Position numbers and translations under genes: made by a program | Shown here: in pieces, positions 1,678-2,160 of the stretch | Position numbering within the stretch: the stretch's first letter is position 1 | Layout: each line of letters opens with the position of its first letter | The notes under the pieces: generated by a model | What the model was told of the DNA's origin: nothing | Databases searched by the model: none | What the model saw: the letters and a program-made list of their open reading frames with translations, nothing else | Assembly: GCF_053078305.1 (NCBI RefSeq) | Contig: NZ_CP166879.1 | DNA length: 64,000 bases | Strand: one strand, 5' to 3'

Positions 1678-2160
1678 AGCCGGATAAGGCGTTTACGCCG
1701 CATCCGGCAACGGTGCCAGATGCCTGATGCGACGCTTGCGCGTCTTATCAGGCCTACAAATTCCCGCACCCTCCGTAGGCCGGATAAGGCGTTTACGCCG
1801 CATCCGGCAACAGTGCCAGATGCCTGATGCCTGATGCGACGCTCGCGCGTCTTATCAGGCCTACAAATTCCCGCACCCTCCGTAGGCCGGATAAGGCGTT
1901 TACGCCGCATCCGGCAACAGTGCCAGATGCCTGATGCGACGCTCGCGCGTCTTATCAGGCCTACAAATTCCCGCACCCTCCGTAGGCCGGATAAGGCGTT
2001 TACGCCGCATCCGGCAACGGTGCCGACTGCCTGATGCGACGCTTGCGCGTCTTATCAGGCCTACAAATTCCCGCACCCTCCGTAGGCCGGATAAGGCGTT
2101 TACGCCGCATCCGGCAACAGTGCCGACTGCCTGATGCAACGCTCGCGCGTCTTATCAGGC
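1678..2160. repeat. Tandem array of about 5 REP/BIME units (about 100 bp each), each with inverted REP palindromes
   Basis: Unit gccggataaggcgtttacgccgcatccggcaa...tgcctgatgcgacgct(c/t)gcgcgtcttatcaggcctacaaattcccgcaccctccgtag recurs at about 1678, 1779, 1886, 1986, 2087. Confidence 0.85.

Follow-up and report, generated by a model that had tools for sequence, protein, structure and literature searches.

The mRNA-stabilizing effect of REP hairpins at 3′ ends and the action of BIMEs as Rho-dependent attenuators belong to classical work, for which we rely on its citation in Harris et al. 2026 (their refs 15, 16 and 20). The BIME-2 class, defined by Gilson and Bachellier and summarised by Ton-Hoang et al. 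2012 (PMC3333891), comprises alternating Y and Z2 units with GTAG and CTAC tetranucleotides and a mismatch in the stem, arranged in tandem, located outside genes and variable in copy number between strains. In E. coli K-12, REP325 separates yjdM (phnA) from yjdN (phnB); it consists of six Y-l-Z2 repeats with identical ‘U’ motifs between them, where ‘l’ is the 13-nt linker inside a unit and ‘U’ stands for an ‘unknown’ 17-nt motif between units (Qian et al. 2015, PMC4550694). The same locus served to define naRNA4 (nucleoid-associated noncoding RNA 4) and is the source of naRNA1-6, with transcription inferred to start at the yjdM promoter (Qian et al. 2015, PMC4550694). REP325 is counted among the longest REP clusters of K-12 (Harris et al. 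2026, bioRxiv 10.64898/2026.03.23.713779).

A five-unit allele of REP325

The repeat array that separates yjdM from yjdN in the window, by which we mean the whole 64,000-nucleotide stretch of DNA analysed here, is a five-unit allele of REP325, and hence a published, named element that has served two studies as their model REP, rather than a new one (Table 1); the first-pass annotation had not identified it as REP325. Tandem Repeats Finder (TRF) recovered it with a period of 100, 4.8 copies, 93% matches and a score of 835, its head-to-tail copies being spaced 107, 100, 100 and 100 nt. Together with the alignment of the units, this confirms the periodicity described by the first-pass annotation, a tandem array of about five near-identical 100-bp units each holding two REP palindromes in inverted orientation. 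That annotation had placed the array at 1678-2160; its end point holds, whereas the start moves three nucleotides upstream. Its names for the two flanking genes also stand, with small corrections to the extent of yjdM and the start of yjdN. Of the 565 nt that separate the yjdM stop codon (1658-1660) from the yjdN ATG, the array takes up 486.

Table 1. Features of the yjdM-yjdN region, in window coordinates
Feature	Position	Strand	Description and evidence
Promoter-like site upstream of yjdM	1229..1257	+	CCGACA-17-TATAAT; consensus scan, 10/12 matches
yjdM (phnA)	1325..1660	+	111-aa zinc-ribbon protein; Pfam PF03831 (E 9e-35), PF08274
Lead TTGTATTGTGATCG	1661..1674	+	yjdM stop codon to first REP, 14 nt; unchanged in 13/13 alleles read
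BIME-2 array, five-unit REP325 allele	1675..2160	+	TRF, five Rfam naRNA4 matches, unit-by-unit K-12 comparison
Unit 1	1675..1774	+	Y 1675-1708, linker 1709-1721, Z2 1722-1757, U linker 1758-1774; naRNA4 102 bits
Unit 2	1775..1881	+	107 nt; Y 1775-1808, Z2 1829-1864, U linker 1865-1881; naRNA4 86.5 bits (lowest of the five)
Unit 3	1882..1981	+	Y 1882-1915, Z2 1929-1964, U linker 1965-1981; naRNA4 99.9 bits
Unit 4	1982..2081	+	Y 1982-2015, Z2 2029-2064, U linker 2065-2081; naRNA4 111 bits (best of the array)
Unit 5, terminal	2082..2160	+	Y 2082-2115, Z2 2129-2160; naRNA4 99 bits
yjdN leader	2161..2225	+	C-rich, G-poor, C/G ~2 in 78-nt windows; GAGG ribosome-binding site
yjdN (phnB)	2226..2669	+	147-aa VOC/glyoxalase-fold protein; Pfam PF00903, PF06983

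Read along the plus strand, a unit opens with GTAG and a Y palindrome (GCCGGATAAGGCGTTTACGCCGCATCCGGC), from which 13 nt of linker lead to an inverted Z2 palindrome (GCCTGATGCGACGCTYGCGCGTCTTATCAGGC) with CTAC; it closes with a 17-nt linker, AAATTCCCGCACCCTCC, which within the window is found in this array only. The array thus contains five Y and five Z2 palindromic units, inverted relative to each other inside every unit, and on alignment its units differ by a 7-nt insertion in unit 2 and by a few linker and loop substitutions. Units 1, 3 and 4 are 100 nt long, and unit 2 exceeds that length because GCCTGAT is duplicated (1822-1828 and 1829-1835). The two ends depart slightly from the pattern: the Y of unit 1 starts with GTAA instead of GTAG, and unit 5 stops after Z2 at 2160, without a CTAC tail or U linker, and carries a private G-to-A change at 2138 that weakens the inner Z2 stem, which appears shortened in the predicted fold.

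Searches with Rfam returned five plus-strand matches to RF02564 (naRNA4) at 86.5-111 bits, against a gathering score of 59.5; antisense matches on the array were all under that score. Hits to MIR904 (28 bits against a threshold of 80) and isrG (19 against 100) were dismissed as side effects of the palindromes. Single Y-l-Z2 units elsewhere in the window, at 4638-4718 (minus strand, in the phnD-phnE spacer) and 44819-44890 (minus strand), score 69 and 77 bits and so pass the gathering score as well, from which it follows that the Rfam model detects BIME-2 units generally and not REP325 alone.

Comparison with K-12 MG1655 (NC_000913.3, 4325000-4327000) showed the same flanking genes, the same 14-nt lead, the same 100-nt unit and the same orientation relative to yjdM. 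Units of the window differ from K-12 units by 0-6 mismatches, unit 4 matches K-12 units 2 and 4 with zero mismatches, and the 77-nt K-12 naRNA4 sequence recurs as an exact string at 1985-2061. The two alleles differ in size, with five units, ten palindromic units and a 565-nt spacer in the window against six, twelve and 657 nt in K-12, and only the window allele has the 7-bp duplication in unit 2 and the G-to-A change at 2138. Its 3′ junction reads GGCTTCCCTCTC, as in O157:H7 and in single-unit alleles, whereas K-12 REP325 has GGCCGCCTCTC.

The array likewise shares the hallmarks of BIME-2, namely alternating Y and Z2 units with GTAG at the 5′ and CTAC at the 3′ side (the first Y and the last Z2 excepted, as above), imperfect palindromes with a stem mismatch, tandem copies, extragenic location and a copy number that varies among strains. 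Its fit to the class is uncertain in one feature, the inter-unit linker, AAATTCCCGCACCCTCC, which has no name among the canonical linkers. A sequence similar to this U linker follows the lone Pseudocitrobacter unit on its 3′ side, and the U motif therefore looks like a duplicated piece of local flank rather than a canonical BIME linker.

The exact naRNA4 copy in the window also bears on a proposed role in nucleoid architecture, in which naRNAs of ~77 nt (naRNA1-6) bind HU and bridge cruciform REP DNA chromosome-wide, condensing the nucleoid. REP325 RNAs co-purify with HU and the nucleoid, REP325 deletion decondensed the nucleoid by electron microscopy while plasmid-borne naRNA4 restored condensation, 3C contacts among REPs depended on both HU and REP325, and cruciform DNA was condensed in vitro by HU together with naRNA4 (Qian et al. 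2015, PMC4550694). For K-12, transcription of the naRNA and its binding to HU are reported, with a Kd of ~32 nM measured by Harris et al. 2026, a study that the senior author of Qian et al. 2015 co-authored. In that study, however, nucleoid area by structured illumination microscopy was unchanged by deletion or overexpression of REP325/naRNA4, no stable HU-cruciform-naRNA4 ternary complex was found, and Hi-C showed neither long-range REP-REP contacts nor HU dependence (Harris et al. 2026). The condensation model based on HU and naRNA4 is now disputed, and the single unit present in most sampled E. coli (see below) is a poor fit to a dosage-sensitive global structural role. We consider it very improbable that nucleoid architecture is what this array serves.

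The first-pass annotation had also called the array unusually long, in agreement with the standing of REP325 among K-12 REP clusters; yet a longer one is found in the same window. This second BIME-2 array (33645-34362, 718 bp; TRF period 114, 6.3 copies, score 1192) sits between an ORF at 32954-33643 (plus strand) and another at 34400-35713 (minus strand), probably the yjcO-gltP spacer. Like the REP325 allele it is built of tandem Y and Z2 units that match the naRNA4 model, with six matches on the minus strand, but it differs in its period (114 against 100), in its linkers, in its lower naRNA4 scores (65-81 bits) and in strand.

Four open reading frames that overlap the array (1506..1976, 1834..2034, 1900..2139 and 2034..2669) are all present in the program-made ORF list, and the earlier dismissal of the first three, and of the N-terminal part of the fourth, as artefacts of the repeat is well supported. 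A coding role was rejected: the array ORFs have no Pfam match, 11 of the 12 fetched genomes carry no CDS annotation in the spacer, and the frame moves whenever a 100-nt unit is gained or lost. For the fourth frame, YjdN homologues of other genera align from residue 1 of the start at 2226. In the twelfth genome, PEC1003 (NZ_CP160643.1; fetched locus 472-780), PGAP has annotated only a frameshifted, incomplete ‘hypothetical protein’ pseudogene within the REP325 array. The yjdM gene is annotated by RefSeq in all fetched E. coli loci, and none of the fetched RefSeq records, even that of MG1655, annotates a REP feature. The spacer deserves a REP325/naRNA label rather than a blank or a set of ORFs.

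Elsewhere in the window, Rfam matches to sraL (52128-52268, plus strand, 153 bits) and to SECIS_2 (31125-31179, plus strand, 87 bits), the latter presumably the selenocysteine insertion element in fdhF, are consistent with the 4.26-4.33 Mb region of K-12. Adjacent to the single unit in the phnD-phnE spacer, phnE is intact (4737-5516) and carries two copies of an 8-bp repeat, GCTGGCGT, against three in the K-12 MG1655 pseudogene phnE1, so that a functional phosphonate transporter is to be expected of the source strain. Among 5,426 complete E. coli genomes, the best identity to the phn region (2226-9000) is 97.8%, and the acs-nrf region (40000-48000) is 99.8% identical to strain ET350; the window is a mosaic.

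Copy number in E. coli and the spacer in other genera

To count units across the species, we searched with two flank-only queries and, for matches taken at even intervals down the ranking, measured the distance from flank to flank, covering 118 complete E. coli genomes; whole-locus megablast was unusable for this purpose, with array-against-array alignments saturated and K-12-like alleles split. Unit counts ran from 1 to 7, with a single unit the most frequent (71/118 genomes, 60%), followed by six (16/118, 14%), two (12/118) and five (11/118, 9%), while four units (3/118), seven units (2/118), three units (1/118) and irregular arrays (2/118) are found in a few genomes each. The first-pass annotation had anticipated a copy number that varies between strains, and the census bears this out. 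Although first and rough, it also shows that the long, K-12-type array is a minority state among sampled E. coli.

The counts were verified by reading 13 alleles, 12 of them fetched and the last the window's own. Seven units occur in GS04, where unit 3 is duplicated; six in MG1655; five in ETEC6335, MRSN346355 and PEC1003, as in the window; four in N18-04097; two in O157:H7; and one in ST131 and FDAARGOS_1370. The K-12 substrain GM4792 (NZ_CP011342.2) has three units against the six of MG1655; either the array shrank on a laboratory timescale, or the assembly has collapsed. The expectation that length changes always involve whole 100-bp units was overturned by the irregular alleles of the second sample: SC516 lacks Z2 in its first unit, and ECNB21-M121 has five units and a partial sixth, with the same 7-bp duplication in another unit. 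The GCCTGAT duplication found in unit 2 of the window is also present in ETEC6335 and ECNB21-M121. No array identical to that of the window was found in the 5,426 complete E. coli genomes, the best being that of ETEC6335 at 98.3%. For copy-number variation at yjdM-yjdN, our literature search found nothing specific, only the general statement on BIMEs (PMC3333891).

A contig of 7 kb (USCO01000113.1) in a metagenome-assembled genome labelled ‘uncultured Clostridiales bacterium UMGS1583’ encodes a YjdM of 100% identity followed by the start of REP325, and looks like E. coli contamination of a Clostridiales bin.

The variation in copy number raises the possibility of a selfish or neutral repeat, a REPIN/BIME cluster grown by slippage, unequal recombination or TnpA(REP)/RAYT activity, whose length has no selected function and whose effects on its neighbours are incidental. 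A range of 1 to 7 copies with a mode of 1 favours this reading, as do the irregular alleles (a unit without Z2, a partial sixth unit, a 7-bp micro-duplication) and the three units in one K-12 substrain record. In K-12, tnpA(REP) sits far from the yjdM-yjdN region. The array contains the tetranucleotide GTAG as well as the mismatch in the stem, both of which TnpA(REP) needs, and the enzyme is known to act on BIMEs in vitro (PMC3333891); the literature also holds a prediction of REP325 as a RAYT-associated REPIN. Against it stand the effects of deleting the array in K-12, which alters the expression of both neighbours as well as growth (Harris et al. 2026), and two observations from comparative data. 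First, the stems vary far less than the loops and linkers do: of 48 stem columns a single one is variable, compared with 12 of the 21 columns that make up loops and linkers (8 alleles, 37 units; Fisher p = 4e-7, a descriptive value because units are not independent), a difference that could reflect homogenisation between units instead of selection on the RNA. Second, a hairpin directly after yjdM is kept across genera, in the form of different REP families.

The genes yjdM and yjdN remain neighbours in the Enterobacteriaceae genera Escherichia, Citrobacter, Pseudocitrobacter, Leclercia, Enterobacter, Kluyvera and Cedecea, where 80-242 nt separate them, and every spacer read has a hairpin close 3′ of the yjdM stop codon, its sequence or REP type differing between genera. 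E. albertii combines a short hairpin with a Z2 unit; in Pseudocitrobacter faecalis a single complete Y-l-Z2 unit precedes a C-rich, U-like flank; a divergent species representative labelled ‘E. coli’ has two diverged units; and a canonical intrinsic terminator is present in Citrobacter werkmanii, C. youngae and Enterobacter sp. Bisph1. These spacers suggest that a hairpin or terminator 3′ of yjdM, which would end or protect its message, is a conserved requirement, and that expansion past two units took place within E. coli. A selfish origin and a real local regulatory effect are compatible, and the neutral reading can coexist with the regulatory one developed below; as the account of this array, however, we regard a selfish or neutral repeat as possible though unlikely.

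Predicted RNA structure and expression of the flanking genes

The palindromes were characterised by RNA folding, an inverted-repeat search of 1600-2260 having returned none. Each unit is predicted to fold as a Y hairpin (stems of 7 and 4 bp separated by a 2x2 mismatch and capped by a tetraloop) and a Z2 hairpin (stems of 8 and 5 bp separated by a 1x1 mismatch and capped by a loop of 4 nt), with energies of -46 to -52 kcal/mol and z-scores of -5.5 to -6.3 (for unit 1, -48.6 kcal/mol and z -5.9). Unit 2 departs from this, with one long Y:Z2 inter-unit hairpin as its predicted minimum-energy fold. The spacer as a whole folds with a z-score of -12.9. An intrinsic (Rho-independent) terminator was rejected, as a terminator scan of 1661-2225 came back empty and T-runs are missing after every unit. 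A consensus scan found no promoter-like site in the stretch from the array to yjdN, though a weak or non-sigma-70 promoter could escape such a scan; the promoter-like site upstream of yjdM (Table 1) is likely the source of the transcript that runs into the array.

These features, namely an orientation sense to yjdM, strong predicted hairpins, and the lack of an intrinsic terminator or internal promoter, fit an account in which the REP325 array protects yjdM mRNA and attenuates transcription before yjdN, partly via Rho, while its copy number changes by slippage or recombination; we assign this reading a probability of roughly 80%. The array would be transcribed from the yjdM promoter as the yjdM 3′ untranslated region, within a yjdM-REP325-yjdN operon, and each unit would form two stable imperfect hairpins in the RNA, giving a stack of ten. 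Such a stack would block 3′-to-5′ decay, protecting the upstream yjdM message, and would halt most RNA polymerases before yjdN, partly through Rho, such that yjdM would be expressed well above yjdN. In the DNA, near-identical units would slip or recombine, producing copy numbers that differ between strains.

A single preprint, in which the six-unit allele of K-12 was studied, supplies the functional evidence for this account (Harris et al. 2026, bioRxiv 10.64898/2026.03.23.713779). There, deletion of REP325 lowered the yjdM/yjdN RNA ratio from ~35 to ~1 and raised yjdN 8-10 fold, a plasmid without REP325 gave >160-fold lower yjdM mRNA, and truncated transcripts from the array formed a ladder. 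With bicyclomycin, read-through of the full array rose from 23% to 39%, and fragments of 2-4 hairpins were little affected. Other results of the same study argue against the account: endogenous yjdM mRNA was undetectable by Northern blot, and stabilization was seen only with yjdN present. Against a role for Rho, the fragments of 2-4 hairpins lacked Rho dependence, and an in vitro screen for Rho binding did not pick up REP325. The first-pass proposal that the array may insulate transcription or stabilize the yjdM message agrees with these K-12 experiments, and we infer by analogy that the five-unit allele would behave like the six-unit one in stabilization, attenuation and partial Rho dependence. 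On the K-12 data, REP325 resembles classical REP/BIME elements in forming co-transcribed hairpins in a 3′ untranslated region with no U-run, in exonuclease protection and in partial Rho-dependent termination; it differs from them in that both effects were shown on one element and in that Rho dependence appears only at full length.

The base composition of the region offers a candidate for where Rho might load. The sense strand of the array contains 166 C against 131 G (C/G 1.0-1.7 across the array) and is mostly predicted to be paired, whereas the U linkers, each with nine C and one G, are predicted to be unpaired. Together with the C-rich 65 nt 3′ of the array, these linkers could form a Rho loading region, a role for the C-rich linkers and tract that is not discussed in Harris et al. 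2026 (bioRxiv 10.64898/2026.03.23.713779).

The same palindromes might instead act at the level of DNA topology, with Y units serving as strong binding and cleavage sites for DNA gyrase, or as sites of cruciform formation, and taking up the supercoiling that lies between the phn operon and the yjdM unit. The array does offer five Y units, and the literature reports enrichment of REP325 DNA in exonuclease-protected DNA under stress. In the text of Sutormin et al. 2019 (PMC6379681) that we read, gyrase cleavage sites are over-represented in BIME-2, mainly in Y units, with a signal that rises when transcription is blocked; yet the sites lie in only a subset of BIME-2, and the clusters named there are sucC-sucB and tldD-yhdP, not REP325. 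Deletion of REP325, moreover, caused no supercoiling-related change in expression (Harris et al. 2026). A gyrase or topological role is plausible for BIME-2 in general; as an explanation of this array we consider it improbable. It has also been proposed that REPs which start within 15 nt of a stop codon may influence how the upstream gene is translated. The literature includes REP325 in this group, and the 14-nt lead falls within that distance.

What the copy number may mean

Because about 60% of the sampled genomes carry a single unit, a long array is not required, and its length may be neutral. A bolder extension of the protection and attenuation account is that copy number acts as a heritable dial: with one or two units yjdN would be expressed about as much as yjdM, five to seven units would silence yjdN, and the C-rich linkers and 3′ tract would constitute distributed Rho loading that grows with the number of units. 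We offer this tentatively and think it rather unlikely to be correct; if it were, the K-12 model allele would be unrepresentative of the species.

Collectively, our results describe a locus that behaves as a variable-number tandem repeat, which matters when results from K-12 are generalized, and the natural alleles of 1-7 units constitute a ready series for relating hairpin number to mRNA protection and Rho-dependent attenuation.
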